A stretch of DNA of 64,000 bases from Malacoraja senta (lineage: Eukaryota). The notes below the pieces were generated by a model, which saw only the letters and a list, made by a program, of their open reading frames with translations, searched no databases and was not told the DNA's origin. Made by a program: the position numbers and the translations under genes. Positions 8,547 through 54,890 of the stretch are shown here, piece after piece; the first letter of the stretch is position 1; each line of letters begins with the position of its first letter. The DNA lies in the NCBI GenBank assembly GCA_038087875.1, contig CM075989.1, positions 24,740,001-24,804,000 of the forward strand, in the 5' to 3' direction.

Positions 8547-8818
8547 GTGTGTCGGAAGGAACTGCAGATGCTGGTTTAAACCGAAGATAGACGCAAAATG
8601 CTGGAGCAACTCAGCGAGACGGGCAGCATCTCAGGCAGACTGAATGAAGGTGTTCAGCGAAACGATCGCCCAGTCTACGTTTGGTCTCGCCGATGTATAT
8701 GAGTCCACATCTGGAACAATGGATACACTAGATGAGGTTGGTGGAGGTGCAAGTGAGCCTCTGCCTAACCTGAAAGGACTGTCGGGGTCCCTGGACAGAG
8801 TCGAGGGAGGAGGTAAAG
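8547..8818 (-). mobile_element. Penelope-like element fragment: GIY-YIG endonuclease pseudo-ORF (8633-8818) joined to the pLTR repeat (8547-8632)
   Basis: Manual translation of the minus strand: FTSSLDSVQGPRQSFQVRQRLTCTSTNLI*CIHCSRCGLIYIGETKRRLGDRFAEHLHSVCL, i.e. the PLE signature NLIYC..CxxC..YIGET.R...R..EH with one in-frame stop; this frame is absent from the ORF track. Confidence 0.9.
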
Positions 8819-12290: not shown

Positions 12291-12319
12291 TCGGGTTCCT
12301 TCTTCAGACTCTGATAGAC

Positions 12320-28366: not shown

Positions 28367-28456
28367 TGTTGGAGACCTTTGAACTATCTTTAATCAGACT
28401 TTACTGGACTTGATTTTGCATTAAACTTTATACCCTTTATCATGTAGCTGCACACC

Positions 28457-29361: not shown

Positions 29362-30034
29362 GCATGCAACAAAAAGCTTATCACTGTACCTCGGTAAACG
29401 TGACAGTAAAGTAAACTAGACACATAAAGAAATACCCTGGTGACAGAGATGTGACCATGGTACCATCCATCACATTGATGGTGCTGCTCCTGAATGATTG
29501 TATTAGTTCCAATTTAAGAGATTCTATTCAGGCACCGATCCTACATGTTAAAAATAACTGTGAGCCAAACAAAGCCTGACCTACATTGAACAGTAAAGTA
29601 GGCCAGTTATCTTGTTCTGACATCGCCATCTCCTGAGCTTCCCGCTGTGCTCCGATCTAACTACGCTACACTTGGCTTAGAGATCCACTAAATCAATGTG
29701 AAGCCTGGCATTCCTTTGAAAATGCAGACAAACATATGACGGAGGCTGCATTTCAGCTAATACATCGTCTCCTGCATTTCTTTCTTTAAAATTATCACTG
29801 AATTCTGAGCTTGCTGCTTTCATGAAGACAAAGGATCGTGCCGATGGAATGTGGAGCAGAATGCTGGAAGAACTCTGTAATCAACAGCATCTGTGGAGAT
29901 AAAAGCTATCAACGACCCACCCTCTGCCTCCACAAATACTGCTTCACCAAATCTATCCTTGCAGTGTTTTGTTTATTTGTACCTGTCCAGTTTCCATTGT
30001 AGTCTTGGAGTAATTCACACCTTATAACACTGCC

Positions 30035-32637: not shown

Positions 32638-32807
32638 TTTGCTCCACATCTGGAGGAGCTTCAGGAAGTTGTTGCCAAGCAGATGTTGATACCAAAATTC
32701 CGAGGCGGGAGATTGGTCCAAGTTATTGGGTTTAGATAATATTTTAAGGAAGAAAAGTGACAGGAAGAGATGTCTCTTTGAGACATGTTAGAATGAGAGG
32801 TCAGTCT

Positions 32808-33138
32808 AACAATGAACCATTCTACATTTCCTTGATCACCGTCCCTTTTGATCTGTGTTTTCACAACTTACTCTTCCGTATCTCTTTGTCTCCTTCTCCC
32901 CTGATTTTCAGTCTGTAGAAGGGTCCCAACCCAAAACGCCACCTATCCATGTTCTCCAGAGATGCTGCCTGACCCGCTGAGTTACTCCAGCACTCTGTGA
33001 AACGTCACCTATCCATGTTCTCCAGAGATGCTGCCTGACCCGCTGAGTTACTCCAGCACTCTGTGAAACGCCACCTATCCATGTTCTCCACAGATGCTGC
33101 CTGACCCGCTGAGTTATTCCATCACTCTGTGCCTCTCT
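32808..33138 (+). mobile_element. Penelope 3' UTR/pLTR with 3 tandem 66-bp units (32933-33130)
   Basis: Unit GAAACGTCACCTATCCATGTTCTCCAGAGATGCTGCCTGACCCGCTGAGTTACTCCAGCACTCTGT. Confidence 0.85.
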
Positions 33139-33729
33139 GTGTGCAACATCAGACCTTGTTTGCGTACGTTGTCTTTTCAGTCCCCTCTCATCTAGATATT
33201 ATAACAGAGCACACACTGAGAGCTTCACATTTTTTATTTAATCATATTTAAACGAGGCAACTCTAATTTGATTACACATCTCTGCCTCTGTAGTTTGTTC
33301 GTTTCCGGACGGCCGCTCCCACGTAACTTGTGATCGGGCGACCGTCAGTTCAAATCTGGAAGTCAGAGTATTTTTTAACCTTTATGGGACATGGTGAGCT
33401 GAGACCATATTTATTGCCGATTCTTCACAGCCGCTGAGAGGAGCTTGTGGTGGACTGCTAGAGCATGATGACAGAGGAATACAAGAACCAGGGGCAGGAG
33501 TTGACCTCATGGCCTCTGGGTGGGTCACTGGCCATCTGTAAAATCTTGCTTGATCTGGGGTCACAGCTGCCCCATAACCCATAATGTTCAATTCACTTGT
33601 GCTCCAAAACTCCACCGTGAATGACTGCACTCCATTGCTGGAGGTAATTTCGTAACTTTGTTGAGTGGGACGGTTAGATTTCAAACATAAGAACAGTGAA
33701 GGAATGTCAATTCAGGAGAGTTGCAATAG

Positions 33730-34520
33730 ATGGCAGCATGGGTGGAGCAGCGGTAGAGTTAGTGCCTCACGGCACCAGAGACCCGGGAATCCTGACTACG
33801 GGTGCTGTCTGTACGGAGTTTGCACGCTCTCCCGATGACTGCGTGGGTTGCTCCAGTTTCCGCCTTCATCCCAAAGATGTACAGGTTTGTAGGTTAATTG
33901 GCTTCGGTAAAATTGCAAATTGTTCCGAGTGTGCAGAATAGTGTAAAGGGCCTGTCCCACGAGCATGCGACTGCATGCGGCAAGCGCGACCAAACCGGAA
34001 GCGGGGGCCGCGCGGAGGTCGAGTGATCCCCGTAGAGGGCCGGTCCCACCAGCATGCGACTACATGCGGCGAGCGCGAGCAAACCGGAAGCGGAGGCCGC
34101 GCGGAGGTCGAGTGATTGACGTGAAGTTCGAGCGAAGTCCGCGGGAAGTTCGCGCGTGACGTACGGCGTCAAGACGCTGCGTACGGCGTCGAGACGCTGC
34201 GCACGCCCGTCGAGGCGGTGCGTACGGCCTCAATACGGCTGCGGGCTGGCAGGCCGTTGCCGCGGAATATTTGGACAGTGTCAGTTTTTCGGAGCCCCGC
34301 GTGATGTCGGGACCAGCTCCGCACAACTCCATGCGGCTCCGGCGATCGAAGTGGGACCGGCCCCGCGAGGCCGCACGGCTCAAGCGACCACGTTAGGTCG
34401 CGCTTGCCGCATGCAGTCGCATGCTCGTGGGACAGGCCCTTTAGTGTACAGAGTGATCACTGGGCTGCATGGACTCAGTGGGCCGAAGGGCATGTTTCTG
34501 CGCTGTATCTCTAAAGTCTA
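33730..34520 (+). mobile_element. HE1 V-SINE split by a Harbinger-type MITE
   Basis: SINE sequence ..GAATAGTG | TTAGTGTACAGAGTGATC.. resumes after the MITE. Confidence 0.8.
33947..34440. mobile_element. PIF/Harbinger-type MITE, CpG-rich, with perfect 45-bp TIRs
   Basis: AGGGCCTGTCCCACGAGCATGCGACTGCATGCGGCAAGCGCGACC at both ends, inverted; flanks TAA and TTA; degenerate internal copy of the left end at about 34036-34115. Confidence 0.88.
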
Positions 34521-35206
34521 TACACCTTCCTCTGCTATTATTGCTTTAAGACGTTGCTTAAAAACCTTTATTGACCAAGCTTTTACTGCCAATACCAAGG
34601 ATGCCTTAAGTGACCTGATATCATATTAACTTTATGATGCTCTTGCCATCAATAAAGTATGTTTGACATGCCTCTATCTTTACACAGGAACTCCAGCACT
34701 CAAGCTCCGAGAGCTAGCTCCCTCAAAACAAACTGCAACAGTGAGACGATACCCTGTACGTTTACAGATGTTAGAGGTGTAGATTGTGTGGCGAGCTGCT
34801 CAAAGCCTCTATGTTAAGGGTGTGATCACATTGTGTTTAATACCATCATTGATCGCTGATTGTAACTCAAGGCACATGTGGATTTTTGGTCATTTCACAA
34901 CCGGTCTATTTTACTTTCCACTAAAGAGGAAAAATGATCAGGGTTTATAATAACATGGGGCTGCAACCTGCCAGGCACATGGTGTTCAATTCATCCCCTT
35001 GGTATTGAGCTCCGGTCCCAGAGGTCAGAGATTCAACTATTCCTGGTAACTTGTGAACTGATCCCAGGAAATACCCTGAAATACAATTGCAGCTACTTCC
35101 AGGAAGGGGTTTTACGACCCAGTCTGGTCATCAACTCGTCTCAGTCCACCATGTAGCTGGCTTGAATACCCTTAGACAGACAGCCAGGGTGAGGACATTG
35201 TCTGTG

Positions 35207-35577
35207 GATAGACACAAAATGCTGGAGTAACTCAGCGGGACAGGCAGCATCTCTGGAGAAAAGGAATAGGTGACGTTTCGGGTCGAAACCTTTCTTCAGA
35301 CTGAAAGTCAGAGGAAAGGAAAACAAGAGATATAGATGGTGATGTAGAGAGGTATAGAACAAATAAATGTTCTATGACTTTTTTGCATATCTTTCATTCA
35401 TTTTTTCAATATCTCTATATCACGGTCTATATCTCCCGTTTGCCTTCCCCTAATACTCGGTCTGAAGAAACATCACCTATCCCTTTTCTACAGAGATGCT
35501 GTCTGACCCGCTAAATTACTCCAGCATTTTGTGTCTATCTTCGGTGTAAACCAGCATCTGCAGTTCCTTCCTACACA
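35207..35577. mobile_element. Palindromic Penelope element including 3' UTR on both arms
   Basis: Minus arm 35207-35370, plus arm about 35380-35577. Confidence 0.8.
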
Positions 35578-35599
35578 GGCCATTGACTCTGATCTTTCC

Positions 35600-35800
35600 C
35601 ACACATCAAATATCGAGGACGGGCCACGTGGGGGCCGGAGGCAGGAACTGCCGGCAAGAACAAAGGGGGACCCGGCGTGGGGGTCAAAATGGGAAATAAT
35701 TGTAACTTTGGCGGAGTCCTTTGCACACCTTGGGTATGCAAAACAAATATCACTGTGACTTGTCACATGTGACAATAAAGTATCAGTCATTCATTCGTTC
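35600..35800 (+). mobile_element. Non-coding retroposon fragment with a Rex1-type tail
   Basis: GC-rich body, then TCACTGTGACTTGTCACATGTGACAATAAAG and (CATT)n. Confidence 0.55.
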
Positions 35801-36162
35801 AAAAAACATTTACAGCAATAACTGATGGAACTTAGAAAAGAAAATAGGTGCAGGAGGAGGCCATTTGGCCCTTTGAGCCAGCACCGCCAACTGGATTGCC
35901 AACTGGATTGTCAGTGGAAGGCTAAGGTGGTTGTGTTCCAATGTATGGAGGTAAATCAAAGCCATGGAAAGTGAGTTCTGAGATTATTTTCACCGCCATT
36001 AGCCATTTGTTAGTAATAACTCTTTCCACATCTCTAATGTATGTTGTCAGAGCTGAACAACATGCTTTGTGCAAAGCGCCCAGACTTATAGAGACTTGCA
36101 TCTATGGAGACTTTCAGAATCTCACAATACCTCAGATTACTTTGCAGCCAGGTTTAAAGCAC

Positions 36163-36475
36163 AGTTTAGTTTAGTTTGATTTAGTTTAGAGATACAGCGT
36201 GGAAACAGGTTATTCGGCCCACCGAGTCCGTGCCAACCAGGGATCACCCCGCCACACTTACACTATCCTACACACATTTGTGACAATTTATAATTGTACC
36301 AAGCCAATCAACGTACAAACCTGTACGTCTTTGGAGTGTGGGAGGAAACTGGAGTATCCGGAGAAAACCCACACGGTCACGGGAGAACGTACAAACTCCC
36401 GTACAGACAGCACCCGTGGTCAGGATCGAACCCGGGTCTATGAGGCAGCAAACTCTACCGCTGTGCCACTGTGTC
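36163..36475 (-). mobile_element. HE1 V-SINE
   Basis: (TTTAG)n tail, V-core and head. Confidence 0.85.
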
Positions 36476-36580
36476 GCGCAGCAGGGGAGAAGGAGTGGGA
36501 GTGATCTACTGTGTAAAGAGCTGGTGCAGAAACAATGGGCTGAATGGCCTGTTTTGCTCTGATTCTGTGACACTTAGCTC

Positions 36581-37405
36581 CCCTATACATCAACGGCGAG
36601 TGTGTGGAGAGGGTCTACACCTTCCGGTTTCTCGGCGTCCTCATCTCCGCTGACATCTCCTGGACAGACAACATCACAGCGGTCATCAAGAAGGCTCAGC
36701 AGCGGCTGCACTTCCTGAGGGTCCTCAGGAAGTACAACCTGGACTCCAACCTGCTGCTGACCTTCTACCGCTCGTCCATTGAGAGCCTGCTGACATACTG
36801 CATTACAGCATGGTACGGCAGCTGCACCATGGCAGACAGGGAGAGGCTTCAGAGGGTAGTTAGGGCAGCACAGAAGATCATTGGCTGCCCTCTCCCCTCC
36901 CTGATGGACATTTACACCTCCCGCTGCCTCAGCAGGGCGAAGAACATCATCAAGGACAGCTCCCATCCTGCGTTTGGCCTGTTTGACCTGCTGCCCTCAG
37001 GGAGGCGCTATAGGTGCATCAGAACAAGGACAAATAGACTCAAGAACAGTTGCTTTCCAAAAGCCATAACCTCTCTGAACTCACACATGCACTGACTTCA
37101 CAGCTTAACCCCCGGACTTCCATCTATCCACCTACTGTAATTTGTACTGTAACTGTAATTTTTAATATGTGCAATAACCCATACTGTATATAAGAATCCT
37201 ATTTATTCACTCTATTTACCCATTGTCTTTTTATAGATATGTATATAGCGCCGCAGAGCTGTGCACCTTATCCCCCCACCCCCCCCCCCCCCTTTTGTTT
37301 TGTTTTTTTGTTTTTTGAACTAACTACATGTCTGCACTGAGTACGAGCTGCTTTTAATCTCATTGTACACGTGTATAGTGACAATAAAATGGCATTCATT
37401 CATTT
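36581..37405 (+). mobile_element. Young Rex1/Babar LINE 3' end, ORF open to its stop at 37095
   Basis: FRFLGVLISADISW, KKAQQRLHFLR, FYRSSIESLLTYCIT, LLPSGRRYR; ACAATAAA then (CATT)n tail. Confidence 0.92.
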
Positions 37406-38026
37406 ATCCTCAAACAAAACATAAAAGAAGATTTGTATTTTTCTGATGCCTTTCAGAACCTCAAGGAGTGTAGAATGTTTCAACATGCAAGTGTGTTTGT
37501 AGAAGAAAAGGAGGCAGGCTTTTAACACCCCTGGTATTTGTTTGAGTTTTATGTTCAGAATAAACCTTTCTGTTGGAATATATATTCAGGAAACACAAAC
37601 GTGTTGCTTTCTGTTCTGAAGCCGTTCAATTTTGCTTCAAACAGAAATGTACATTTTTGGAGTTTTAGAGTTTTGCACAAGGGATTTTAACATTTGTTCA
37701 TTTCGAGAAGAAAAGACTAAGACATTGATATAAATTCATACACATACATGTCTGTTTAAAACAGCTGCTCTTTCTGCAGTTTATATGTTAAAATCCAAAA
37801 TAATCATTCATTCTTAAAGTAAGACCTGTTTATACAGCTGTGGTGTAAAAGGCAAACACTACTTATGAAGGCTTAAGATAGTTCTTTCCAAATGCAGTCA
37901 GTGGGGCCCTGCACTGCCATGTTTTCCTGCACATCGCCACTTCAGTATCTAGATATAAACATCAAATATATACTTGTTCAGTGCAACCTTGCCTCATTGT
38001 GTACTGGGATAAAATGGACCATTTTG

Positions 38027-38310
38027 CAGTTTAATTTAGAGATACAGCACGGAAAGAGGCCCTTTGGCCCACCGAGTCCGTGCAGACCAGCGATCACCCT
38101 GTACACTCGTTCTATCCTACGCACTAGGGACAATTTACAATTTTAACCAAAGCCAATTAACCTACAAACCTGAACGTGTTTGGAGTGTGGGAGGAAACCG
38201 GAGCACCCGGAGAAAAGCCACATACAGAGAGCACCCTTAATTAGCATTGAACTCGGGTCTCTGGTGCTGCAAGCGTTGTAAGGCAGCAACTCTACCGCTG
38301 TGCCACCATG
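38027..38310 (-). mobile_element. HE1 V-SINE
   Basis: Tail, core and head match. Confidence 0.8.
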
Positions 38311-38367
38311 CTGCATCAGTTGGTTCCGGCCTGGTGCAAGGTGCCACACAGTTTGCCCACTTCTCTC

Positions 38368-38760
38368 TACAACATTGACTTCTCTAACTTCAAATAACCC
38401 CTGCATCCCCCTTCCCTCCATCCATCCCCCACCCTAGATGTTGTACGAGTTTTACTGTGGTCTCATTGAGATCCTCTGTCTATATAACTAGTTGTCATCC
38501 TATCCCACGGCTAACGATGGTCTATTGTGTGCCCCACATCTCCTTGATCATCGTTGCTATTTACATATCATCCATTTCTCCTAAGTACTGTCTATGGATA
38601 TCTCACGTTTCCCTTTCCCCTGACTCTCAGTTTGAAGAAAAGTCTTGACCCGAAACATTCCCCATTCTTTTTCTCCAGAATGCTGCCTGACCCGCTGAAT
38701 TACTCTAGCCTTTTGTGTCTGTCTTTGGTTTAAACCAGCAACTGCAGTTCCTCCCTGTAC
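38368..38760 (+). mobile_element. Continuous Penelope 3' end: ORF stop, 3' UTR and pLTR
   Basis: AACATTGACTTCTCTAACTTCAAATAA (NIDFSNFK*), C-rich UTR, then CAGTTTGAAGAAAAGTCTTGACCCGAAAC.. to GCAGTTCCT. Confidence 0.8.
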
Positions 38761-39191
38761 ACTATCTACGACACCAGCTACTTTAGTGTCTGCTGCATGT
38801 TCTTCATGGTATTGTTAATGCACAGAGGGGGTGTTGGCTTCAGTCCAAGTCGATAAATCTTCGCAGCCTCAAAATAAATGATCCCACCGCACAAGTTGAA
38901 GCTCAGGGTTATTCTGTTTGGTGACCTGTCCAGTTATTGACTCTCATCAAATCACTAAGTCAGATGATCTGCCCATTTATTTCAATGATGTTTGTGGAAG
39001 CCGTTATCTGTGTACTGTGGACAGCTTGATTGTATTTGTGTATTGTCTTGATTTTGACTGGATAGCATGCAAACAAAAGCTTTTTGTTGTGTCTTGGTAC
39101 ACATGACAATAACACACTTGCTGTGCGTACATTGGTGGTAGATGTTCCTACATCACCATGTTATCTGCTCTTCAGATACTTCATTGGACCC

Positions 39192-39524
39192 AGAAGGATC
39201 CCGACCTGAAACGTCACCTATCCATGTTCTCCGGAGATGCTGCCTGACCCGCTGAGTTACTCCAGCACTCTGTGAAACGTCACCTATCCATGTTCTCCAC
39301 AGATGCTGCCTGACCCGCTGAGTTACTCCAGCACTCTGTGAAACGTCACCTATCCATGTTCTCCACAAATGCTGCCTGACCCGCTGAGTTACTCCAGTAC
39401 TCTGTGAAACGTCACCTATCCATGTTCTCCACAGATGCTGCCTGACCCGCTGAGTTACTCCAGTACTCTGTGAAACATCACCTATCCATGTTCTCCACAG
39501 ATGCTGCCTGACCCGCTGAGTTAC
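39192..39524 (+). repeat. 66-bp tandem array (about 4.8 units) derived from the Penelope pLTR
   Basis: Units start at 39208, 39274, 39340, 39406 and 39472. Confidence 0.9.
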
Positions 39525-40449
39525 ATTTTGGACCAAGATGAGCACATTGCAGACGATGCTTTTAGAGAGTCCATTGGACGCATGGTTAAGACAAGCACTC
39601 ACTCTTGCTGGATGTTGGGTGAACAGGGACCAGCTCTCTCCACTGCTCCATTAAAATTGATTTTTAAATGAGATTTCAGAAAGGCCAACACTCCAGAGAA
39701 TTAGTGCCACAGTTTTTTTAATTTAATTCTTTTGAGCTTAGGTTGATTTTGAAAGATCCTACGTCATAATGTTGAGAAAAACTGGAACTGCCAAATGCTC
39801 GAGAAATATTTCATTGAGTTTATCGGGAGATATTTATAACTGAATGGCAGGAAATAAGTGAAATTAAATCGTTAAAAACTCATGTGCAATAAATCTAAAG
39901 CTTCGCGTTCTGGGAAAGTTGGAGAATTTAGATAATATTTTCTGTGTTTGTACATTGATGCTGGTTTTTTAATGTGTGGGACAGAAAATGCTGGAGTGAC
40001 TCAGCGGGACAGTCTTCCTCAGTCTGAAGAAGGGTCATGACCCAAAACGTCGTCCATTCCTTCTCTCCAGAGATGTCACCTGTCCGCTGTGCTCAGGACT
40101 GCTATCTAGTTAGTGGTTGGATGGACAGTGAAACTTTGAACATGGTATCTAATTCTGAGTGCCTGGAGTGTCAAATGTGGGTTTCCCAAATTCAGGAAAG
40201 GCATTCTTATTGCACACATCACTCAGGCACCCAGACTAGAGTGCAAGATCAGACAGCATCCGTGGTCAAGATCAAACCCGGGTCTCTGGCACTGTAAGGC
40301 AGCAACTCTATTACCATGTATCTATACACTGTGAATGGCTCGATTGTAATCATGTATTGTCTTTCTGCTGACTGGTTAGCATGAAACAAAAGCTTTTCAC
40401 TGTACCTTGGTACATGTGACAATAAACTAAACTGAAACTGACACTGGAA

Positions 40450-40812
40450 TAGTGAAAGGCCTGGATAGAATGGACGAGGAGAGGATGGTTCCACTTGTGG
40501 GAGAGTCTAGGACCAGAAGTCACAGCCTCAGAATTAAAGGGCCTTCCTTTAGGAAGAAGATGAGAAGGAATTTCTTTAGTCAGAGGGTGGTGAATCTGTG
40601 GAATTCTTTGCCGCAGAAGGCTGTGGAGGCCAAGCCAATGGATATTTTTAAGACAGAGATAGATAGATTCTTGATTTGTACAGGTGTCAGGGGTTATGGG
40701 GAGAAGGCGGGAAAATTGGGTTAGGGGGGCGAGATAGATCAGCCATGATTGAATGGCAGAGTATTGATGGGCCGAATGGCCTAATTCTGCTCCTATCACT
40801 TGTGACCTTATG
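40450..40812 (+). mobile_element. CR1/HER1 3' end inserted in a Rex1-type tail (40312-40445)
   Basis: KGLDRMDEERMVPLVGESRTR..FFSQRVVNLWNSLP; ACTGAAACTG on both sides. Confidence 0.85.
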
Positions 40813-41276
40813 AAACTGAACTGAAACTGCTGCACCACTGGTTGTGTGCTGGGTGGGGGAGAGACCAGGGTAAAGCACTCTCACTTCTAAATTAGAGCTG
40901 GGAGCTGCCTTTGGAGACTCCAGGAATGCTGGCTGTCTCCCTGGAGAGAGGGGAGCAGTGTCTACAGGGCAGTAAACAAAGTCACCATGGGAGTTCACCA
41001 AAAACTCGCAATGATTCTTGGCTGCTTGCCCTGCAACCAATTAGGATCCAACTATCACACAAGGCTCTATTTACTGATGTTGGATGATGGATAATGTGCA
41101 ATGCAAGATTTGTCTCAGGAATAAAGTCTGTGAAAGACATTAACAAGATTAGAGTGTGTGTCGGTGTGGAAGAGATTATGACTCATATTCCTCACTGTAT
41201 GGAAGCATAAGATGGTGCAGTAACACCCATATTGTTTGGTTATCTGCGTGAAATGGTTGTCATTTAGGTTTAGACA

Positions 41277-41635
41277 GAAGATAGACGCAAAATGCTGGAG
41301 TAATTCAGCGGGTCAGGCAGCATCTGTGGAGAACATGGATAGGTGATGTTTCACCGAGTGCTGGAGTAACTCAGCGGGTCAGGCAGCATCTGTGGAGAAC
41401 ATGGATAGGTGACGTTTCACAGAGTGCTGGAGTAACTCAGCGGGTCAGGCAGCATCTGTGGAGAACATGGATAGGTGACGTTTCACAGAGTGCTGGAGTA
41501 ACTCAGCGGGTCAGGCAGCATCCTTGGAGAAAAAGAATAGGTGATGTTTTGGGTCAGGACCCTTCTTCAGACCGAGAGTCAGGGGAGAGGGAGACAGAGA
41601 TATGGAAGGGTAAGGTGTGAAAACACTGATCAAAG
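41277..41635 (-). mobile_element. Penelope 3' UTR/pLTR with 4 tandem 66-bp units
   Basis: Reverse complement of the unit at 32933 and 39208. Confidence 0.88.
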
Positions 41636-42001
41636 GTTGGGGACTTGCACAAGTGAGTTACTCTTGTGAAAGGAATGTGTTTGCTGTAAGTAAGAGACAT
41701 AAATGGCCAGCAGAGGGTGAAGATCAATTATTGGGGCTGATTTACAGTTTGATGGGGTGGGTAGTAACTGGAGTAGATTGTGTTACAGCTCAAGTGATCA
41801 GGCTTATGCACATTCTGTAAACCAGAAGAAAGAGCTACGATCACACAAATCTAAATTGTTAGTTTAATTCAATACAGGTTAATATGTTGCTGGACATAAA
41901 TGTTAACAGGCCTCTTTGAGACTCATTCCGTTTCTAGAAAAGGTCCCATTTAAGTAATAATTAATGGCAAAGTAAGCAGCTTCTGACCAGAGAGAAATTA
42001 A

Positions 42002-42747
42002 AGGGGCTGTCCCACTTGGGCGACCTAATCTGCGAGTTTAGAAGAGTGTCTTCGACCTTCAAACTCGCAGTATGGTCGACACGTGGTCCTAGGAGGTCCT
42101 ATGAGGTTGCTGGAATTCTCCTTCATGCTCGAGGGAAGTTCCCGAATACTCGCGGCCTCAGCTAGGTCGCGAAAAATTGTTCAGCATGTCGAAAAATGTT
42201 CCGCCAGTAAAATTTGGTCTGGTTGTGCAGTGGAGTGGGGTCGCTATTTAGTTACAGGCAGTCGAGGGCAGCCGTAGGCAATCTCCTTCGCTGACCGGGC
42301 ATTTTGATTGGCTCATTGGAGTTTTCAGGACCAAGGAAAACCGACCGGTAAGTAAAATGCCCGCTAAACTTTATTACACTTCTTTAAAGTGTCTCCACTA
42401 CTTCTCCCCATCTTCTCTCCCCTCTCTCCACCCTTTCTCCCCCTCTTCTTCCCCCTTCTCTCCCCTTCTTCCCCCCCCCCCCTCCGCGCTCTCTAAAGGA
42501 CTTACCGTACACTGTGCAGCCGTCTTTTTACCTTCCTCTTCATCGCGGGTGTGAATTTCAGACAGTGCTCCCCCGCTTTCCCTGGCCCCCGCCTTTGCGA
42601 TGTGTTTGTGTGTGTGTGTGTGCGGTCGGTCGATCCAGCTCGCGGTTTCATCCCTGACGGTCGATCCAGCTCGAGGTTTTCCAGGCGAGTGCCCTCGAGC
42701 TTGAAGGTCGAAGACACTCTTTGTAACTCGCAAGTGGGACAGCCCCT
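42002..42747. mobile_element. PIF/Harbinger-type non-autonomous DNA transposon
   Basis: 17-bp TIR AGGGGCTGTCCCACTTG, subterminal inverted repeat AAGAGTGTCTTCGACCTTCAA, and TAA duplication at 41999-42001 and 42748-42750. Confidence 0.88.
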
Positions 42748-43357
42748 TAACTTGCTGCCACTTGTGAGCAAAATGCCATAAACTGTTCCAAGTGGAGAGA
42801 GGTCACATTGTGTATCTCGGCATGGTTACGCCAGACTTACTGCTCGGGCTCAGCCAGCTTGCCCTGCATGAGCTTCAGATAACACGAGGTACTGGGTCTG
42901 TAGACAGGAACCTGACAGGCCAGGTACCTGGACAAGCTTGCTCTCTATCTCTCTCTATACTGTATCTCTCTATATCTCTTGTTTCCCTTTCCCCTGACTC
43001 TCAGTCTGATGAAAGATCTCTATTCCTTCTCGCCAGAGATGCTGCCTGCCCCGCTGAGTTACCCCAGCATTTTGTGTCTATCTTCAGGGTAAAGCAGCAT
43101 CTGCAGTTCCTTCCTACACAAGGTGGTGAAGCATATCGATGCATGCAGGGTGATGTCAGGAGATGTTGCTGGATGAAGGTGCTGAGGACCACCAAGCCAC
43201 AACAACCCCTCGTCTCTCTATCAGTCCACTAACACAGCAGAGGACAGGTCAGCAGCCCTTGCGTAAGATGCAGAAAAGAACAATTAGAACAAAAGCAATA
43301 TTATAAAATATTAAAATTTTAAGAAAATAAAAATGGCCAAAGAAGAAGAAGGAGGGT

Positions 43358-43820
43358 CTGGTGGCACAGCGGTAGAGTTGCTGCCTCACAGCGCCAGAGA
43401 CCCAAGGTTTGGTCCTGACTATGGGTGCTATTTGTACAGAGTTTGGACATTCTCCCTGTGACCACGTGAGTTTTCTCCGGGAGCTCCGGTTTCCTACCAC
43501 GCTCCAAAAATGTGCAGGTTTGTAGGTTAATTGGCTTCAGTAAAAATTGTAAATTGTCCCTAGTGCATGTAGGGTTGGGTCCTTGCTGGTCAGTGATCAC
43601 CCCAGTAGATTAGCACTATCCTACACACTAGGGAATTTATACAAGCCAATTAACCTTAAAGTATGTGGAGTGTGGGAGGAAAGAGGAGCACCTGGAGAAA
43701 ACCCACATGGTCACGGGGAGAACATGCAAACTCCATACAGACAGCATCCGTAGTCATTATCGAACCCGGGTCTCTGGCGCTGTAAGGCAACAACTCTACC
43801 ACTGTGCCACCGTGCCACCC
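43358..43820. mobile_element. Tail-to-tail pair of HE1 V-SINEs
   Basis: GGTGGCACAGCGGTAGAGTTG at the left and CAACTCTACCACTGTGCCACC at the right. Confidence 0.8.
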
Positions 43821-44997
43821 ATGCTGATGAAGTCTTTGGACTTAGAACAACTGAAGCAAAAATAAGAGCTTTCGAGTTCCAGGCCAACACCAACAATATC
43901 ATTTAAATTCCATTTTGTACTTTCCATTTTATACCCATACACTACATTTTATTCATCAGCTAAAGACCAGTCAAGGATTTGTGTACAATTTCCCAATAAA
44001 TGATTGGAGGAATTAAAAACTGTGAATAAAATGTCCCTCATTAACAAAGCACCTAAAAGCAACCAGCTCAAAGCTTTAGATGACAACAGAATGCATGACA
44101 TTGGATCATAATCAGAGTTGCAAATCTAAAGCTGCCATAGCAACACTGAGGAACCCTGGATAATACAGGGGATTATCTCTTTCCTCCCACACTCCACATA
44201 CTGGAAGGTTAATTGGCTTCTATAAATTGTATATTGTCCCCAGTGTGTAGGATAGTGCTAATCTACTGGGGTGATCACTGGTCAGCAGGGACCCAGTGGG
44301 CTGAAGGACCTTTTCCCACGCTGTATCTCCAAAGTGTAAAGTTAAGTCTGAAGCCCACACCTTCTGAAATAACCCATTCTCCTCCTTTCTATTCATGCTG
44401 CCCTTCCTCTCCGATTGCCGTCCACCCAATGTCCTCCTCCCTGCCGGTATCGGGCACATTATATCTACTGAGGATCAGCCAGAGTTTCATGTGCCTTCCT
44501 TGAATCTGCACTCTGGTTGACAAGACAGGAGATCCAGGTTGTTTCTTTAACAGCTCACTCAACCTGTTCTGCCACTTTCAGAGAAGCAGAAGATTCACAA
44601 GCATGGAGGTGCACGGCACACTCACTCAGCTCATTTTTAAAGCCAGCTGCATTCGATGCCTTGCAGAATAACTTTGGTAGATTTTCTAATTGCTGCCTGG
44701 GGTGGAATTAGCGTTGCAAATCGGCTGCCCTTTATAGAAACCATCTGATTTCCCTTAGCATTGAGATCAGCATTGCAGAAAGAGTTGCTTTCCATTAACT
44801 CTTCAAGTCCTGGAGTAAGGCTGGAACCCCTGGCAGGGCTATGTGCTCCATTAACGGAGCTGGCCAATAGATGAAGGGGTGCAAGGGTCACTGGTGGTTC
44901 TAGTGAGCTGCAGTGTTACGGCATTGGGACACCAAACGTCGGGACAATGGGAAAGGAATTGAAGAGCTGAGATGAGAAAGAACCATCCACTCTGTAT

Positions 44998-45318
44998 GTG
45001 TAGGAAGGAACTGCAAAAGATAGACACAAAGTGCTGGAGTAACTCAGCGGGTCAAGCAGCATCTGTGGAGAACATGGATAGGTGACGTTTCACAGAGTGC
45101 TGGAGTAACTCAGCGGGTCAGGCAGCATCTGTGGAGAACATGGATAGGTAACGTTTCACAGAGTGCTGGAGTAACTCAGCGGGTCAGGCAACATCTCTGG
45201 AGAAAAGGAATAGGCGACGTTTCGGGTTGAGAACCCTTCATCAGTCTGAAGACAGGTCTCAACTTGAAACTTCACCTATACCTTTTCTCCAGAGATGCTG
45301 CCTGTCCCGCTGAGTTAC
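44998..45318. mobile_element. Penelope pLTR element with 3 tandem units (-) and an inverted arm (+)
   Basis: Inversion centre TCAGTCTGA at 45241-45249; CCACTCT on both flanks. Confidence 0.85.
45216..45244 (-). ncRNA. Minimal hammerhead ribozyme core (best-preserved copy found in the window)
   Basis: Minus strand CUGAUGA-A-GGGUU[CUC]AACCC-GAAA-CG-UC: conserved core, helix II, palindromic ACGU helix III and GUC site; helix I is disrupted by the inversion junction, and activity is untested. Confidence 0.6.
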
Positions 45319-45862
45319 ACCCACTCTACATTTGTGGAGGAGACCATGGATCAAGGAGATAAGTTGCTATCCCGTTTGCAAAGGGGAGTGAGCGTGATGT
45401 GGGAGATGATGGGCATGTGGTGTATCTCTACACCGCTGGAGCTGGGCAGACTGGGGACATGAACGATCCTGCTCCTGTGGAGAGGGAGAGGAGATAGAGC
45501 ATGCGGTGGCCATTGGCCAGGACTGAGCAACAAGAAGTATAATGACCGCACTGTGGGTGTGAGTGATGTGTCAGCAGAGTGAGGTCAACCAAAGATTAGT
45601 GAGGACAAGGAAGAACGAGAAATAGACCGTGTGGGGAGTAGGAGAGGGGTGAAAGTTAAAGCAGAAACTAATCAACGTTGTTTCATTCACCAGGAAAAGT
45701 GGAAAATGTCGATGTAACAATGACAGCCAAGCTGGCAAAAGACACTGACCTGTCCGTGAGGGGGGGAGTGTTAGGGGTAGTCCACCCCACTCCTAAACCG
45801 AGGAATGTCAGGCACAAAATAGGAGAGAGACAGGGTGAAAATAGAATATAAAGTGAGGGAAC

Positions 45863-45874
45863 ACAGAGACAGAC

Positions 45875-45905
<31 letters not shown>

Positions 45906-45982
45906 GAGACTGACAGAGAGAGAGACTGACAGAGAGAGAGACAGAAAGAGAGAAAAGCAAGAGGAAGACAGAGAGAGAGAGA
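45863..45982. repeat. (GA)n-rich microsatellite
   Basis: Direct reading. Confidence 0.9.
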
Positions 45983-46556
45983 GCTCGACATTCTAATCAA
46001 GTACAACAACTTCAGTTTTGTTCAATGATTCCATTTATCTCCCTGTATAAGAATGAAAGGAAAGGGAATAGAGAGAGACACACACACACACAGACTTCCA
46101 GCCAAGGAAGGTAGCTTCAGTTTTGCCCCATTTTGCCAATTAGTTCCCTGTATTAGCTTGGCTAGTTCAGTAAATCAGGTATGTTATTATAAATCGTGGA
46201 CCTTAACTAAACTTAACCAACTTGATATCCAGCATTGAAAGGCTCCATAGTAATAAGATTTAATACTAAAGAACCAATTAACCTCCAAGTCAAGCAAGCA
46301 GAACCGATCAGAATGGTTGGACAAGAGACCACAGGTTGACCGATGTTGGTCGAAAAACAATACCTAATTTCACTATGAATTTTGTGGTTGAATAATCTTC
46401 AGATTTTAAACATCTGTGACGTACGTGCGGGGTAATGGGAGAAATGAGCCACGAACGGGCTCAGTATATCCTTGACTCAACTGATAATGGGCATTCCAAA
46501 CTAACACTGGGATTTGAGAACAAAGAGCCTTTAGTGAAATGAATGATAGCCAGAAG

Positions 46557-46768
46557 GAAGGTAGACAAAAATGCTGGAGAAACTCAGCGGGTGAGGCAGC
46601 ATCTTTGGAGCGAAGGAAATAGGCGACGTTTCGGACTTCAGTCTGAAGAAGGGTCTCGACCCGAAACGCCACCTATTCCTTCGCTCCATAGATGCTGCCT
46701 CACCCACTGAGTTTCTCCAGCATTTTTATCTACCTTAGATTTTTCCAGCATCTGCAGTTCCTTCTTAA
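46557..46768. mobile_element. Palindromic Penelope pLTR element (TTCGCTCCATAGATGC subfamily)
   Basis: Arms meet at CTTCAGTCTGAAG. Confidence 0.85.
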
Positions 46769-48589
46769 AGATAACCTGACGGATGTACTTCAAGTGAAAG
46801 ATTGTGCTCAAAGAAAATGGACGACTATGTTTTAAAATAGAAATTGGTTTCAGTCTGTCAAACCTATATAATCTCCATGCATTGGGGTGGAAGGTTTTGT
46901 GACATTGAAATAGTGTTCGTGACCCTTCATTATGAAGGGAAAGTTTGCAGAGCAACCCTCCACAATATAAGACACAAGATGCTGGAGTAACTCAGCAACT
47001 CAGAATGTCTGAAGAACTCTACCTGATCTATTCCCCTCATGATTTGGCACTCCTCTATAAGGTCACCCCCTCATCCTCCTGCGCTCCAGTGCAAGCCTGC
47101 TCAGCTTCTCCCTATAGCTCAGACCCTGGAGTCCTGGCAGTGAATACTATGGAGACATATCGAGACCAATTGCATTGTGCCACAAGTTCAACACCTTGTT
47201 CACAAGTTCACGAGTTATAGGAGTAGAATTAGGCCATTCGGCCCATCGAGTCTACTCTGCCATTCAATAATGGCTGATCTCTGCCTCCTAATCCCATTTT
47301 CCTGCCTCCTCCCCATAACACTTGACACCCGTTCTAATCTATGTCTCTCAGCTTTGCTCCATACAGATGCTGAGAGGTAGTTACACTGGCCCCAGCCCTC
47401 AATGTTCAGTACTGACAGTACCCCAGACTGTGTTTATTTTTTAATCAAACAATACTAGTCAACAAAATGCATTTTAACAACAGCCCAGTAGTTTTTAAAT
47501 CATCATTCCTGAAGACGGTTTTGTATTCCAGATGAAATAAATTACTTGAATTTAAATTCCTGACTGCTGTGTGCGGCTTCAAGCTGAGGCCTACCCATCA
47601 ATAGCCTGTGTCCCTGGACAATGGTGGAGTAACTTAACCTCTAGGCTACAGTAGCAGGCGAACATACAGCAGCGCATGGCCTCAGGCTCACGGTACACAC
47701 TGCATAACTGGTTGAAGTGCAGCCACAGTGGGCTTTTAATAAATACCCCTGGGATCATGAAATCATCCCCTTGTTCAGACAGAGCCCATAAATTGCCAAT
47801 TTATTACAGTCTGCCTCAGGCCTCACGACAGTGCACTTTGGTGATAAAGGAATGGAAGGAAAAGATTGGTGCCTAACGTACAGGAGATGGAGTTAAAGGT
47901 GGAGACCTCATGTACTGGAGCTGACATTGATGTCCTTACACTGAGTGAGACCAACTTCACATTCTCTATCTTTCAACACAGTTTGCAGCAGGTCCTGTGA
48001 AGGTTCGTGCTGTGATTGTCCACACCCCCACTGACCTGCACAAGTGGACAGAATTCTTCAGCAAAGACAGGAGGTGCAAACACATATCTCCATGCACAAG
48101 GTGCACAGAACTGTTAGTTTAGGAAGGAACTACCAATAACGCAGCTGGTAGTTTGGAGTTTAGTTGGAGTTTGTAGTGTTCAATAGCCTGATGGCTGGAG
48201 GGAAAAAGCTGATCCTGAACCTAGACGTTATGGTTTTCAGGCACCCGTACCTTCTGCCCAATAGCAGGAGTGAAAGGAGAGCGTGGCCAGGGTGGTGTGG
48301 GTCTCTGATGATGCTGGCTGCCTTACTGTCTCTAACTCACCCCCCTAACCCCGTTCTCCTGCCTTCTCCCCATAACCTCTGACACCCGTGCTAATCAAAC
48401 GTCTATCAATCTCTGCCTTAAAAATATCCACTGACTTGGCTTCCACAGCCTTCTGTGGCAAAGAATTCTGTGGCACAGATTCACCACCCTCTGACTACAG
48501 AAATTCCTCCTCATCTTCTTCCTAAAGGAACGTCCTTTAAGGTTCAACTCCTACCACGTGTGTGCCAGAGTTAGCGGCTCCCTTGTTGG

Positions 48590-49200
48590 TCTTCATCAGT
48601 CAGAGAATTGAGAAAAGGTCATGTTGCAGTTGTACAAGATGTGGGTGAGGCCGCATTTATAGTATTGTGTTCAGTTTTGGCAACATGTTATAGGAAAGAT
48701 GTTGTCAAGCTGCACAGGGTGCAAAGAGGTTTCATGAGGATGTTGCCAGGACTCGAGGGCCTGAGCTATAGGGAGAGGTTGAGTAGGCTGGGACTCTATT
48801 CCTTGGAGCGCAGGAGGATAAGGGATGATCTTATAGAAGTGTATAAAATCATGAGAGGAATAGATCGGGTAGATGCACAGAGTCTCTTGCCCAGAGTAGG
48901 GTAATCAAGAACCAGAGGACATAGGTTTAAGGTGAAGGGGAAAAGATTTAATAGGAATCTGAGCGGTAACTTTTTCACACTAAGGGTGATGGGTATATGG
49001 AGCGAGCTACCGGAGGAGATAGTTGAGGCAGGGACAATCGCAACGTTTAAGAAACATTTACAAAGGTACATGGATAGGACAGGTTTAGAGGGATATGGGC
49101 CAAATGCAGGCAAGTGGGACTATTGTAGATGGGGCATGTTGGTCGGTGTAGGAAGTTGGGCCGAAGGGCCTGTTTCCATGCTGTATCACTCTATGACTCT
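48590..49200 (+). mobile_element. CR1/HER1 3' fragment, with its 3' end repeated at about 49295-49412
   Basis: YRKDVVKLHRVQRGFMRMLPGLEGLSYRERL..FFTLRVMGIWSELP. Confidence 0.88.
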
Positions 49201-50784
49201 AATTGAACCATCCTATTACCAACTAGAGAGCGATCCTGAACTACTATCTACCTCATTAGTGACCCATAGACTATCTTTTGTTGCAAGATATAACATGGTA
49301 GGTACATGGGTAGGACAGGTTTAGAGGGATATGGGCCAAACGCAGGCAGGTGGGACTAGTATTGATGGGGTGTTGGGCCGAAGGGCCTGTTTCCATGCTG
49401 TATCACTCTATGACAACTCCAACAAACAACACTAGAGAAGCAGCAACTCATGGCTGATCAAAGAGGCTGGTCAGAGCAGAGGAGCTGAGCGACAGAGGAG
49501 CCAGCCACATTCTCTTTGTCGTTGCAGTTTCAGTTCAGTTTATTGTCACGTGTACCGAGGTACAGTGAAAAGCTATGGTTGCGAGCTAACCAGCCAGCGG
49601 AAAGACAATACATGATTACAATCGAGCCATTCGCAGTGTACAGATACAGGATAAGGGAATAACGTTTAGTGCAAGGTAAAGCCAGCAAAGTCCGATCATA
49701 TGGTGGTGCACTGATTACATTATTGTAAAGGAGGGTCTCGACCTGAAACATCACCCATTGCTTCTCTCCAGAGATGCTGCCTGTCCCGCTGAGTTTCTCC
49801 AGCTTTTTGAGTCATACATTTTTGAAAGCAGCTTCCTGAGTAAGATTGCAACTTTGCGCTGAGTGTTTGGAATCTTTCACTGACCCCATTACTGTTTCAC
49901 TCACTTACAGGGGGCATGCAGAGTGCAGTGGGATCATGTGTTGTGATGGTCTCTCACCAGATGGAGGGCAGCCCTGATATGTGAGCATCATGCAGAACGA
50001 TTGCCATGTGAGTAGAGGCAGCTTCAGCAACAACAGGCACATTTAACAAACCATCTACATTTTTCCGTTGGTAACTACAGCCCGGTCGGTCCTCAGCAGA
50101 GTTGTGACAGGAGGCTAAGCAGTTAGCAGGTCTGTTTTAACAACAGCTAATTAATGCATTCCCTGCACAACTTCGCAGAGTAAATGGTCCACTGAGGAAC
50201 AGGGACAATGAGACATACCAGTGTCCCTGACGCCTGTAACATTTGCAACCACTCTGAGAAGAGGCCAGAATCAAAGCCAAAATCAGCTTTAATCACTGAT
50301 AGCCTTTTGCTGCACAAACAAGCCTTTCAGAGTGACCGAATACATTCCATCTTGCAATTAATGGATCCTAAAACCGCAGGGTTCTTGGCTTGTGAAGGAA
50401 ACCAAAATCAATTATTGACAGTGGCTTAGTGCCTGGCTTTTTTTGTCTTGTATTTCAAAGGTTCTGCTTACCTCAGCAGAAACCTAATGAGCTCCCAAGA
50501 AAGGGAGCTGGGAAGATGCACAGTCCACGTCTCACTGCATCCTCACATCTGTCTGTCTGCAGTGCTGTAGCTCTGATGCCGTTCCATACAGCCTCCTCAG
50601 CTGGCCTTTGCTGCTGCTTGCTTGGCCCATGATTTATCAAGATTCACAAGTTCTTACATTTGACCTCCAAAACGCAACATCTCACACTTATCCAGATTAA
50701 TTTCCATCTGACATTCCTCTGATCACATTTCCAACTGGTCTATATGTAGAAACAAACAATTGGAGATGTTGCTTAATGCACAAA

Positions 50785-51080
50785 AGGATACAAAGTGCTG
50801 GAGTAACTCAGCGGGTCAGGCAGCATCTGTGGAGAACATGGATAGGTGACGTTTCACAGAGTGCTGGAGTAACTCAGCGGGTCAGGCAGCATCTGTGGAG
50901 AACATGGATAGGTGACGTTTCACAGAGTGCTGGAGTAACTCAGTGGGTCAGGCAGCATCTGTGGAGAACATGGATAGGTGACATAGAGTGACATCTGAAC
51001 GGGGATCCCGACCCGAAAGTCGCCTATTCCTTTTCCCCAGGGATGCTGCCTGACCCTCTGAGTTACTCCAGCACTCTGTG
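50785..51080. mobile_element. Penelope pLTR element with 3 tandem units (-) and an inverted arm (+)
   Basis: Same 66-bp unit as the other arrays. Confidence 0.85.
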
Positions 51081-51605
51081 GGGTTTTATAAAGAACATTA
51101 TCTATCAAGTGAGTCAAGAGCGTTTTATTGTCATGTCACAAAATGGAACTATGAAACGTCTGATAGACACAAAATGCTGGAGTAACTCAGCGCAAACCTC
51201 TGTCTGATTACTCCATCATCTTGTCACCTCAACGGCGTGGTGTTCAAAATATAAAAGATAAATACTGGGCAGGTCAGGCAGGGTCTGTTGTGAGAGAAGC
51301 AGAGGCTGTTTCAGCTCACAGCATTCATCATATCCTGGTCCATTTACCATCCTGTCCCTCCACTTTTCTCTGTTAACTGCAGAGACAGGGAACTGCAGAT
51401 GCTGGCTAACAGAAAAGGACACAAAGTGCTAGAGTAACTCAGTGGGTCATGTATCGTGGTGTCAGATTTTGTCCACCAGTCACTGCCAGCTACCGGGAGC
51501 GTTCAAAGTGCCATGGGCATGTATGTTGTTACTGTTCCCAGCTGTTTCTCATCATTTAGCCATTGAGTCTGAATCACTGCCTGAAAGGAGCCTCACCAAA
51601 TGATT

Positions 51606-52948: not shown

Positions 52949-53225
52949 TGTATAGGAAAGAACTGCAGATGCTGGTTTACACTGAAGATAGACACAAAGT
53001 GTTAGAGTAACTCAGCGGGAAAGGCAGCATCTCTGGAGAGAAGGAATGGGTGGCATTTTGGGTCGAGACCCTTCTTCAGACTGAGTGTCGGGGAGAGGGA
53101 GACACAGAGATAAGGAAGTGTACGAGATCAAAAGAGATGCAGATCAAGGGAAATGTAGAATAGACAATTGTTAGCTCGGAGAAGGTGACTACAAAGCAAA
53201 CAGAGATACAATGTAATCAGTGGCA
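52949..53225 (-). mobile_element. Penelope 3' UTR plus pLTR
   Basis: Homologous to 32808-32990 and 41277-41635. Confidence 0.8.
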
Positions 53226-53392
53226 CAGGAGGACTTGTGGGTCAAGAGAGAATCAAGTGTATTGTCAGATGTCCCAGACAGAACAATGACACTATGGCCT
53301 GAAGGGCCTGTTCCTCTGCTGTTTTGTTCTATGTTCTATATTCTAGTATTTCTCATTGATCCCAGTCCTGTAGCTATTTAGTTGCATCACTC

Positions 53393-53888
53393 CCCACCCT
53401 CATCCTCACTCCCACCCCCAACTCCACCTCCACCCACACCTCACCCCCACCCCCACCTCCATCCCCACCCCCAACTCCACCCCCACCCTCACCCCGACCC
53501 CCACCCCCACCCCCACCCTCACCCCCCACCTCCACCCTCACCCCCACCCACACCCTCTCCCCAACCCCCCCACCCCCACCCCCACCCTCAACCCCACCCC
53601 CACCCCACCCCACCCCCACCCCCACCCCACCCTCACCCTCACCCCCACCCTCACCCCCACCCCCACCCCCACCCTCACTCCACCCCCACCCTCACCCCCA
53701 CCCCCACCCCCACCTCACCCCCACCCTCACTCCACCCCCACCCCCACCCTCACCCCACCCCCACCCTTACTCCACCCCACCCCCACCTCACCCCCACCCT
53801 CACTCCACCCCCACCCCCACCCCCACCCCCACCTCCACCCTCACCCCCACCTCACCCCCACCCTCACTCCACCCCCACCCTCACCCCA
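53393..53888. repeat. (CCCCAC)n-type C-rich hexamer tract
   Basis: About 500 bp of CCCCAC, CCTCAC and CTCCAC units. Confidence 0.92.
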
Positions 53889-54319
53889 ACATGAAGCACA
53901 GTATAAAACCCACATGCCCCTCCTCAACTGGTGAATAATCCTTTATCTTCTCCTGTTCTATTTTAAGCAACTATTTCTGGTGATTAACACTCAGACTGGA
54001 TTCATTTGTTAGATATGCATATTCAAAACAAATTGATGTGTAAACCTTCAGTCTGTTTTTTAATAAGAATAATTAAAAATGAATTACCTGGCACGTGAAG
54101 GAAGGATGCGACCTTCTAACGATCTTCCCTTGATTAAGACAGGCCATTTAACCAATCAGTCAGAATCTCCCATTGACAGTCAGTCAATCAATCTAATGTG
54201 AATTAGGTTGTGTAATGATGAGAAATAAGAGTCTATGAAACAGTGGCCCACTTGGCCCAGAGACTGCTCTGTGTTCTAACTCAATCACAGCTGACCTGTT
54301 GTGTAAGAAGGAACGTCAA

Positions 54320-54890
54320 GGCGCTGGTCAGGCACATTCAGAATATCGTGAGCACTTTTGGGCCCCGTATCTGAGGAAGGATGTGCTGGCTCTGGAGCGG
54401 GTCCAGAGGAGGTTTACAAGAATGATCCCAGGAATGAGTGGGTTAACCTATGATGAGCGTTTGGCGGCATTGGGCCTGTACTCGGTGGAGTTTAGAAGAA
54501 TGAGGGGGGACCTCATTGAAACATACAGAATAGAGAAAGGCTTGGATAGAGTGGATGTAGAGAGGATGTTTCCATTAGTGGGAGAGTCTAGGACTAGAGG
54601 TCACAGCCTCAGAATTAAAGGACGTTCTTTTAGGAAGGAGATGAGGAGAATTTTCTTTCGTCAGAGGGTGGTGAATCTGTGGAATTCTTTGCCACAGGAG
54701 GATGTGGAGGCCGTCAGTGGATATATTTAAGGCAGACAAAGAGAGATTCTTGATTAGTACGGGTGTCAAGGGTTATGGGGAGAAGGCAGGAGAATGGGGT
54801 TAGGAGGGAGAGATAGATCAGCCATGATTGAATGGCGTAAACTTGATGGGCCAAATGGCCTAATTCTACTCCTATCACTTATGACCTTAT
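54320..54890 (+). mobile_element. CR1/HER1 3' fragment
   Basis: FWAPYLRKDVLALERVQRRFTRMIPG..FFRQRVVNLWNSLP. Confidence 0.9.

Follow-up and report, generated by a model that had tools for sequence, protein, structure and literature searches.

The DNA analysed here, hereafter the window, comprises 64,000 nucleotides of the skate Malacoraja senta (contig CM075989.1, positions 24,740,001 to 24,804,000). It contains five dispersed tandem arrays with a period of 66 bp, which lie in a very abundant pseudo-long terminal repeat (pLTR) family belonging to Penelope-like elements (PLEs) with a minimal hammerhead ribozyme. Here, we compare the repeat units of these arrays with the element copies that hold them. 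One 66-bp module is shared by the loci and carries fewer mutations than its hosts, and it has therefore likely spread between copies rather than arisen by local slippage.

Tandem Repeats Finder (TRF) detected the five arrays, named A to E, and bore out the unit numbers given in a first-pass annotation of the window (3, about 4.8, 4, 3 and 3). The repeats of arrays A and B are on the forward strand, at 32934-33131 (3.0 copies) and 39207-39524 (4.8 copies), and those of arrays C, D and E on the reverse strand, at 41293-41549 (3.9 copies), 45025-45223 (3.0 copies) and 50790-50982 (2.9 copies). Array A is preceded by a pyrimidine-rich part of the PLE 3' region or pLTR (32800..32912, forward), the left edge of which is approximate and corresponds to the climb in repeat depth at about 32800 in three sequencing runs. 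This part resembles the upstream parts at 41634-41568 and 53174-53077. It is followed by a head, which is a decayed 5' half of the minimal hammerhead (32913..32933; CUGUAGA, helix II, G12 lost), and by three units with a short tail (32934..33138) that have 2, 1 and 3 differences from the unit consensus. The head of array B is 5'-truncated to helix II only (39192..39208, forward), and the last of its 4.8 units (39209..39524) stops within the core. An imperfect direct repeat of 13-15 nt, with a 2-nt indel and one mismatch, flanks this array at approximately 39182-39194 and 39524-39538 and is a possible old target-site duplication. Array C has four units (41267..41549, reverse), whose outer halves and tail belong to the TTCYTTTT/TTTTG subfamily and whose three intervening modules equal the consensus; its head (CUGAAGA, helix II, G12 lost) and upstream pLTR part cover 41550..41634. 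Array D has three units (44998..45222, reverse), the first of which is of the TTCCTTTT subfamily, and a tail with an internal deletion. Its head (45223..45244) has the sole intact core motif among the 22 heads found, with A-G as the first helix I pair, and it adjoins an inverted, head-to-head monomer at 45241..45327 on the forward strand. Array E (50789..50982, reverse), with 2.9 units, is 5'-truncated within its first unit, has no sense-strand head and adjoins another inverted, head-to-head monomer at 50994..51081 (forward). The tail of the last unit differs from array to array, and substitutions private to single units occur within the arrays.

Neither CUGANGA nor helix II is found in any of the 13 non-first units, which confirms what the first-pass annotation had stated of the units. 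It had also placed both elements before each first unit. They are complete there only in the arrays at 41290 and 45030 (C and D): the motif is mutated to CUGUAGA at 32933, it is truncated away at 39208, and the array at 50793 starts inside a unit and abuts an inverted copy. The claim that every unit keeps GAAA-CG-UC did not hold, since this GAAACGUC remnant is altered in 8 of the 18 units, by substitution (A1, A3, B5, C1, C4 and D2), by truncation (E1) or at the base after it (D1). Units A1 and C1 have lost G12 as well.

The element that hosts the arrays is recognized by a 32-nt core, which has 57 matches in the window at up to 9 mismatches. The majority sequence of 24 in-register monomers consists of a minimal type I hammerhead, then the unit. 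The family consensus holds CUGANGA, an extra base before helix II, G10.1-C11.1, GAAA, a palindromic CG and UC, and, apart from a helix I of 2-3 bp, it agrees with the hammerhead features listed in PMC4209133; an Rfam scan at the gathering score gave no match. A head is present in 22 of the 41 copies examined. The 3' ends of these copies cluster at 13-16 nt (12/41 rows) and at 46-50 nt (7/41) past the core, with gaps shortening further rows, and thus show the optional tail of 30-40 bp (~35 nt) that PMC11167929 and PMC8557442 describe for PLEs. Inverted pairs of cores within 300 nt comprise 13 head-to-head cases at 8 places and no tail-to-tail case, so that 5' truncation and head-to-head inverted copies, a feature of endonuclease-bearing (EN+) PLEs, are both present. 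One such pair, at 61949-62070, is truncated almost to the core, with a full tail on each copy, and forms a near-perfect palindrome. Furthermore, at 8549..8811 on the reverse strand a GIY-YIG endonuclease fragment (8635-8811, one internal stop) is directly fused to the element core with its full tail. The fragment has 59 amino acids and is joined to the core at 8630. Its score with the Pfam GIY-YIG model is below the curated cut-off (E=0.039), and it matches 8 of 23 candidate proteins, the best being a protein of Leucoraja erinacea (E=2.6e-21, 76%); the best matches are skate and ray proteins with 66-76% identity, which by themselves make a skate or ray source of the DNA likely. Because the endonuclease fragment leads directly into the core, the repeats represent PLE 3' ends. 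No PLE reverse transcriptase (RT) motif was found in the six frames of the window. The homologs P0002 and P0004 have an RYIDD motif upstream of GIY-YIG, and no RT family passed in Pfam. A Zn-finger-like Cys motif lies in the RT-endonuclease linker of homologs P0001, P0002 and P0004, and the window's fragment begins just past it; as far as motif content can tell, this linker suggests the Neptune clade. P0001, a predicted protein of Leucoraja erinacea, has DUF4518 joined to the PLE GIY-YIG region and may be a gene-model fusion or an exapted fragment.

All 13 internal junctions of the arrays are in one register, CACTCTGTG|AAAC, one of them reading CACTCGGTG, and the common junction claimed earlier thus stands. 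A single model monomer with periods of at least 40 offers 108 possible junctions with at least 2 nt of microhomology and 372 with at least 1 nt; given so many choices, chance does not account for five independent matches to one register. On one side of the junction lies the base of helix II, on the other the base of the unit's predicted hairpin, and a diagnostic C in the repeats prolongs this predicted hairpin to the last base of the unit. The junction is found 7 nt upstream of where the ribozyme would cut, and monomers usually end 7-8 nt beyond it. A normal start of reverse transcription and a ribozyme cut or RNA end were considered for it, and its position matches neither.

Parts of the region occur in at least 20 sequencing runs from nine organisms. 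Four of 22 listed runs were compared, at a required likeness of 85%, with the reference segment 32760-32999, which contains the head and one unit of array A and ends at the junction. In the RNA run X22, a polyA library of which about 6% was read, 14,237 reads matched, and 320 of them, with 138 different starts, carry the joint 32999 -> 32934, which is exactly the 66-nt period. These are evenly divided by mate orientation (154 and 166). In the 14 go-back rows listed for this run, 437 of 449 reads land at 32934-32943, and where the intervening letters are known most of these joints restore a period of 64-66 nt with a mutated junction. The exact 66-nt joint is also present in 17, 20 and 34 contigs of runs X1, X6 and X7, and among the go-back joints listed the period-66 joint dominates in runs of three organisms, which upholds the view of the first-pass annotation that a shared junction excludes independent local slippage. 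An assembly artefact, which it had named as a refuting outcome, is ruled out by the 320 raw RNA reads from another organism and by the private substitutions of the units. The variant G>C at 32959 makes up 14, 13, 11 and 15% of the depth in the four runs, to which older relatives may contribute. Contigs in these data break off at the repeat. Exact-pattern scans of metagenome, genome and viral contig collections gave no match.

For comparison with the array units, a table of monomers was made from the 24 in-register copies in the window. Outside this table are the gapped copies at 38679, 51042, 61371 and 51687, copies truncated within the core and the five copies of the CGCTCCATAG subfamily, a distinct subfamily of the same element found at 46572-46722, 55866-56013 and 62181-62240, mostly as head-to-head pairs. 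There is no array among these five copies.

At column 25 of the unit, C is found in 12/13 non-first units, in 0/4 head-bearing first units and in 0/24 monomers. The first units of arrays C and D are of the TTC(C/T)TTTT subfamily and have 5 and 7 differences, respectively, from their own second units. The assignment of all arrays to one subfamily in the first-pass annotation is therefore right for 16 of the 18 units and wrong for these two. The units of array C both begin (5' half of the first) and finish (3' half of the last, with its tail) in the TTCYTTTT/TTTTG type, and once exactly three permuted modules are taken out an ordinary monomer is left. The array can be described as n permuted modules set between two parts of an ordinary monomer, its head and 5' half in front and its 3' half and tail behind, and the same description works for arrays A, B and D. 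Both switch points are located in columns 26-58, the 33-nt core common to the subfamilies. The head and tail subfamilies of arrays A and C agree with monomer types in the window. The upstream part and head of array A differ from those of array C at 11 of 85 aligned positions, and the internal repeats differ from their consensus at 0-3 of 66. Distances among non-first units over 52 columns, a check that had been proposed earlier, are alike within arrays (1.25) and between arrays (1.38). An old, diverged relative of the core at 29857-29899 (reverse strand; 78% over 45 nt) also has the CTCCACAG form, so the diagnostic base is not unique to the modules in deep time.

The relative age of modules and hosts was estimated from rare alleles, defined as non-CpG alleles present in fewer than two monomers, with the indel-bearing part of head D omitted. 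Rare alleles were found at 5/651 nt of the modules and at 8/199 nt of the unambiguous host parts (Fisher p=0.003), or 2/403 and 4/124 when matched by column (p=0.03). The corresponding counts are 5/303 for the ambiguous core and 70/1779 for the monomers. The modules are about five times less mutated than the heads and tails of the arrays, and the host flanks look as old as monomers by this measure. A stricter rule, with the first head CpG masked at the wrong columns, gives 11/199 for hosts and 6/651 for modules; the counts used here are the lower ones, from the more lenient rule and the right columns. CpGs of the unit are intact in 24/26 cases in non-first units and in 28/42 at the same sites of monomers (p=0.019), which is the one CpG comparison that is like for like. 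In the heads, 2/8 CpGs are intact in arrays and 13/33 in monomers, so decay is fast there too. The 66-bp module appears to coalesce much more recently than the copies that hold it.

We propose that the junction arose once and that the young module then spread, directed by homology, into older resident PLE copies, and we give this reading a probability of about 0.5. The junction would have arisen by an RT template jump or by slippage, with 1-2 nt of microhomology, in which synthesis left the unit's predicted hairpin at its base and returned to the base of hammerhead helix II. The spread would then start where the core of a resident copy is nicked or broken, plausibly by the PLE GIY-YIG nuclease; nicking by PLEs in their own pLTR has been proposed in PMC11167929. 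Repair would copy an array-bearing template, which may be a multimeric RNA used by the PLE RT or another array serving as DNA donor, and synthesis would cross the junction n times before it re-anneals in the core. Copies that bear an array may later move by retrotransposition in their entirety as well. Each unit likely carries its half-ribozyme as a passenger.

Several points weigh against this proposal. Array A holds one AGAG-type and one ACAG-type module, which differ at two sites, and units B3 and B4 share a private T; local conversion or duplication thus also acts. Column 38 is A in every one of the five hosts, and the commonest subfamily, T38 (16/24 monomers), is not represented among them, a bias that fits a requirement for homology but fits plain vertical inheritance in one lineage equally well. 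No orthologous monomer site without the array was seen, runs X6 and X7 being without the unique flank of array A, and no nuclease cut site was identified. The age comparison draws on five loci, 199 host nucleotides and 8 events, with nucleotides treated as independent, homologous ranges set by hand and the G at column 7 scored as shared through two copies outside the table. Rare host alleles derived from source-element variants outside the window could inflate the host count. In the sequencing runs, the joint counts cover the listed rows, with 259 further rows beyond them; some joint rows land at 32947-32955, outside 32934-32943, and some joints are uncounted.

According to a second explanation, a few source PLEs or non-autonomous derivatives with the 66-bp repeat in their pLTR inserted head, units and tail together, and recombination varied the ends. 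Such multimeric masters would account for the equal distances within and between arrays, for the truncation of arrays B and E within units, as expected of whole-array insertion, and for hosts that all belong to the A38 lineage. Non-autonomous PLEs with multicopy head-to-tail insertions are described in PMC8557442. An abundant lineage is also indicated by the G>C variant, which accounts for 11-15% of the depth in each of the four runs. Against this, the four heads have no private variant in common and differ in subfamily, and they have decayed like monomers (8/199 rare alleles, 2/8 CpGs intact), whereas the modules are near-identical. At least four masters would be needed, already decayed, each of which had itself gained the module. 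The single multimeric master suggested by the first-pass annotation is in conflict with four heads and four tails that differ around modules about five times less mutated, and we regard masters in general as less likely than our proposal.

The module could also be a 66-nt circular RNA, cut from an array transcript at successive GUC sites by the one ribozyme of the head, ligated, and reverse transcribed by rolling copying primed in the core of a resident copy or its RNA. RNA circles have been proposed as PLE templates (PMC4209133), the distance from cleavage to cleavage is exactly one unit, and such copying would yield exact multiples of a permuted module within the core, as observed. The predicted fold of the circle, at -10.7 kcal/mol, is stable in comparison with 300 mononucleotide shuffles (z=-2.2), but a hairpin that is also formed by monomers accounts for most of this energy, and as a circle the AGAG form is no less stable than the ACAG form (-11.6 vs -10.7 kcal/mol). 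A catalytic core is missing from the unit, array A holds two modules that are unlike at two sites, and retrozyme circles on record measure ~170-400 nt. Helix I has 2-3 bp in the family majority and in array C and is broken in array D, which is below the 4-5 bp of a minimal type I hammerhead; a 2-bp helix I has been reported for D. virilis. A complete ribozyme is found in 0/5 arrays, as A has lost core bases, B and E are without CUGANGA, C has lost G12 and helix I of D is broken. The first-pass annotation had suggested that extra units supply the partner strand of helix III. In geometry a downstream unit could do so, with a predicted 4-bp helix III from ACGU/ACGU pairing. The energies give no such support: the active fold in model RNA costs +10 to +13 kcal/mol (14.6 for a full-head dimer), and the real junction letters, at 12.2 kcal/mol, have no advantage over 40 shuffles (mean 12.0, range 10.0-17.2). 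ViennaRNA ignores the tertiary core, so that these values count only as comparisons between folds. In X22, of which about 6% was read, RNA ends do not accumulate at the predicted cleavage site 32940/32941, though a polyA library could not reveal a circle, and the only pile among those listed is of 5 reads at 32884. Nor were RNA ends seen to accumulate at the cut site of the anole PLE, for which cleavage was not needed for insertion in vitro (PMC11167929). Roles of the module as a 66-nt RNA circle or as a partner helix are thus unsupported here. It is doubtful that the module is a parasite of a parasite, that is, a ribozyme-less circular RNA rolling-copied by the Penelope RT and homing into the cores of resident copies. 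If it were, skates and rays may owe a tenth of the family, or more, to the circular module, which would rank as the smallest among retrozyme-like units and as a natural instance of retrohoming directed at the dead copies of the retroelement itself.

Reiterative jumping, as in telomerase or DRT2, in which one monomer RNA is the template and each insertion involves n returns of the RT after a stall at helix II, is very unlikely. In its favour, PLE RTs are related to telomerase, PLE rearrangements have been explained by template jumps, predicted hairpin bases are found on both sides of the junction, and the fusion of GIY-YIG and core at 8630 resembles a jump product. This mechanism, also put forward in the first-pass annotation, predicts identical units including the first, but column 25 differs in 4/4 head-bearing arrays and the first units are 5-7 bases off in two arrays, which contradicts it for B, C and D. 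In addition, neither the usual monomer 3' end (7-8 nt further on) nor the cleavage site (7 nt downstream) coincides with the junction. Slippage or unequal crossing-over that acted locally and independently at the five sites hardly deserves consideration as the origin, given five loci in one register out of 108-372 candidates, repeats in C and D that are not copies of their own first unit and the same joint in three organisms, and it likely remains only a modifier of unit number, as the private base of B3/B4 and the bases common to A1/A3 and A1/A2 indicate some local copying.

Other repeats surround the arrays in the window. An open frame of 392 amino acids at 11238-12416 (reverse strand) resembles the C-terminal RT region of a long interspersed nuclear element (LINE), presumably of CR1 type, and its 3' end adjoins a 5'-truncated, nearly unmutated copy of the PLE family treated here at 11147-11088. 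LINE RT-like open frames of several kinds are found at 2716-3213, 25193-26139, 28425-29240, 36571-37095, 48905-49324 and 54239-54730. At 33943-34243 there is a GC-rich element with a dimer of 89 bp and a 20-bp tandem present in about 4 copies. A (CCCCAC)n-like array of about 84 copies at 53392-53887 directly adjoins the long monomer at 53005-53174.

The skate family shares the hammerhead motif, the optional tail of ~35 nt, 5'-truncated and head-to-head copies and the fused GIY-YIG with the EN+ PLE pLTRs described in Cervera and de la Pena 2014 (PMC4209133), Craig 2021 (PMC8557442) and Frangieh 2024 (PMC11167929). The partial tandems known from these accounts repeat the pLTR including its ribozyme, whereas the skate arrays repeat a fixed module smaller than the pLTR, which begins inside the catalytic core and is younger than the host copy. 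Animal non-LTR retrozymes, as presented in PMC7229834 and in a preprint (Li, Clavereau and Pollet 2026, 10.64898/2026.07.22.740005), are likewise small, non-coding, dispersed tandems of PLE pLTRs, mostly of 2-7 units. In these sources each unit has a complete type I hammerhead and the circles are ~170-400 nt, whereas the skate units have GAAACGUC alone and, at 66 bp, are shorter than the ~150-450 bp of a non-LTR retrozyme unit; the preprint's list of family consensus lengths goes down to 51 bp. The skate arrays do not fall under the published definition of a retrozyme. They would be passed over by the pipeline of the preprint, which asked for complete motifs in two units in a row. Non-autonomous PLEs of Chlamys such as MRC1 (PMC8557442) are also derivatives with multicopy head-to-tail insertions, but there the repeats are the element itself, and the passage on MRC1 names no young module within older copies.

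Minisatellites derived from transposable elements (Alu, B1 and MaLR in the part of the review PMC9659126 that deals with them) are tandems of part of a high-copy retroelement at many loci, and the skate unit is likewise part of a transposable element at many dispersed loci. Unlike them, the skate module has the same junction and the same diagnostic base at different loci, in different subfamilies and in different species, and there is evidence of its transfer between copies. Repeat addition by DRT2 and telomerase, as described in PMC12039810, also gives precise head-to-tail repeats with a fixed junction bounded by RNA structure, but it copies a single RNA template, whereas the first unit and the repeats of the skate arrays come from different templates. 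No description of the skate family or of the behaviour of its module was found in the open-access literature, a search that left Repbase and Dfam outside. A family so abundant is probably already catalogued there, and supplements of the preprint (10.64898/2026.07.22.740005) list chondrichthyan families that may bear on novelty. The class of element is known, and what is unusual, from five loci, is a module of single origin that is younger than its hosts.

The question of how PLEs build tandems has no settled answer, and RNA circles or local amplification are the usual explanation for tandem derivatives of the pLTR. The single origin of the skate repeat, the lack of a catalytic core and its apparent youth indicate transfer between dispersed copies. 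If the masters explanation prevails, the arrays would belong to an ordinary repeat-bearing PLE subfamily. If the pattern seen in the window is genome-wide, skates would offer probably thousands of dated events, judging from the 11-15% share of the variant and about one core per kb here, and these could be used to ask whether a retroelement gives rise to a dispersed minisatellite family through self-targeting by a PLE nuclease or through ectopic conversion.

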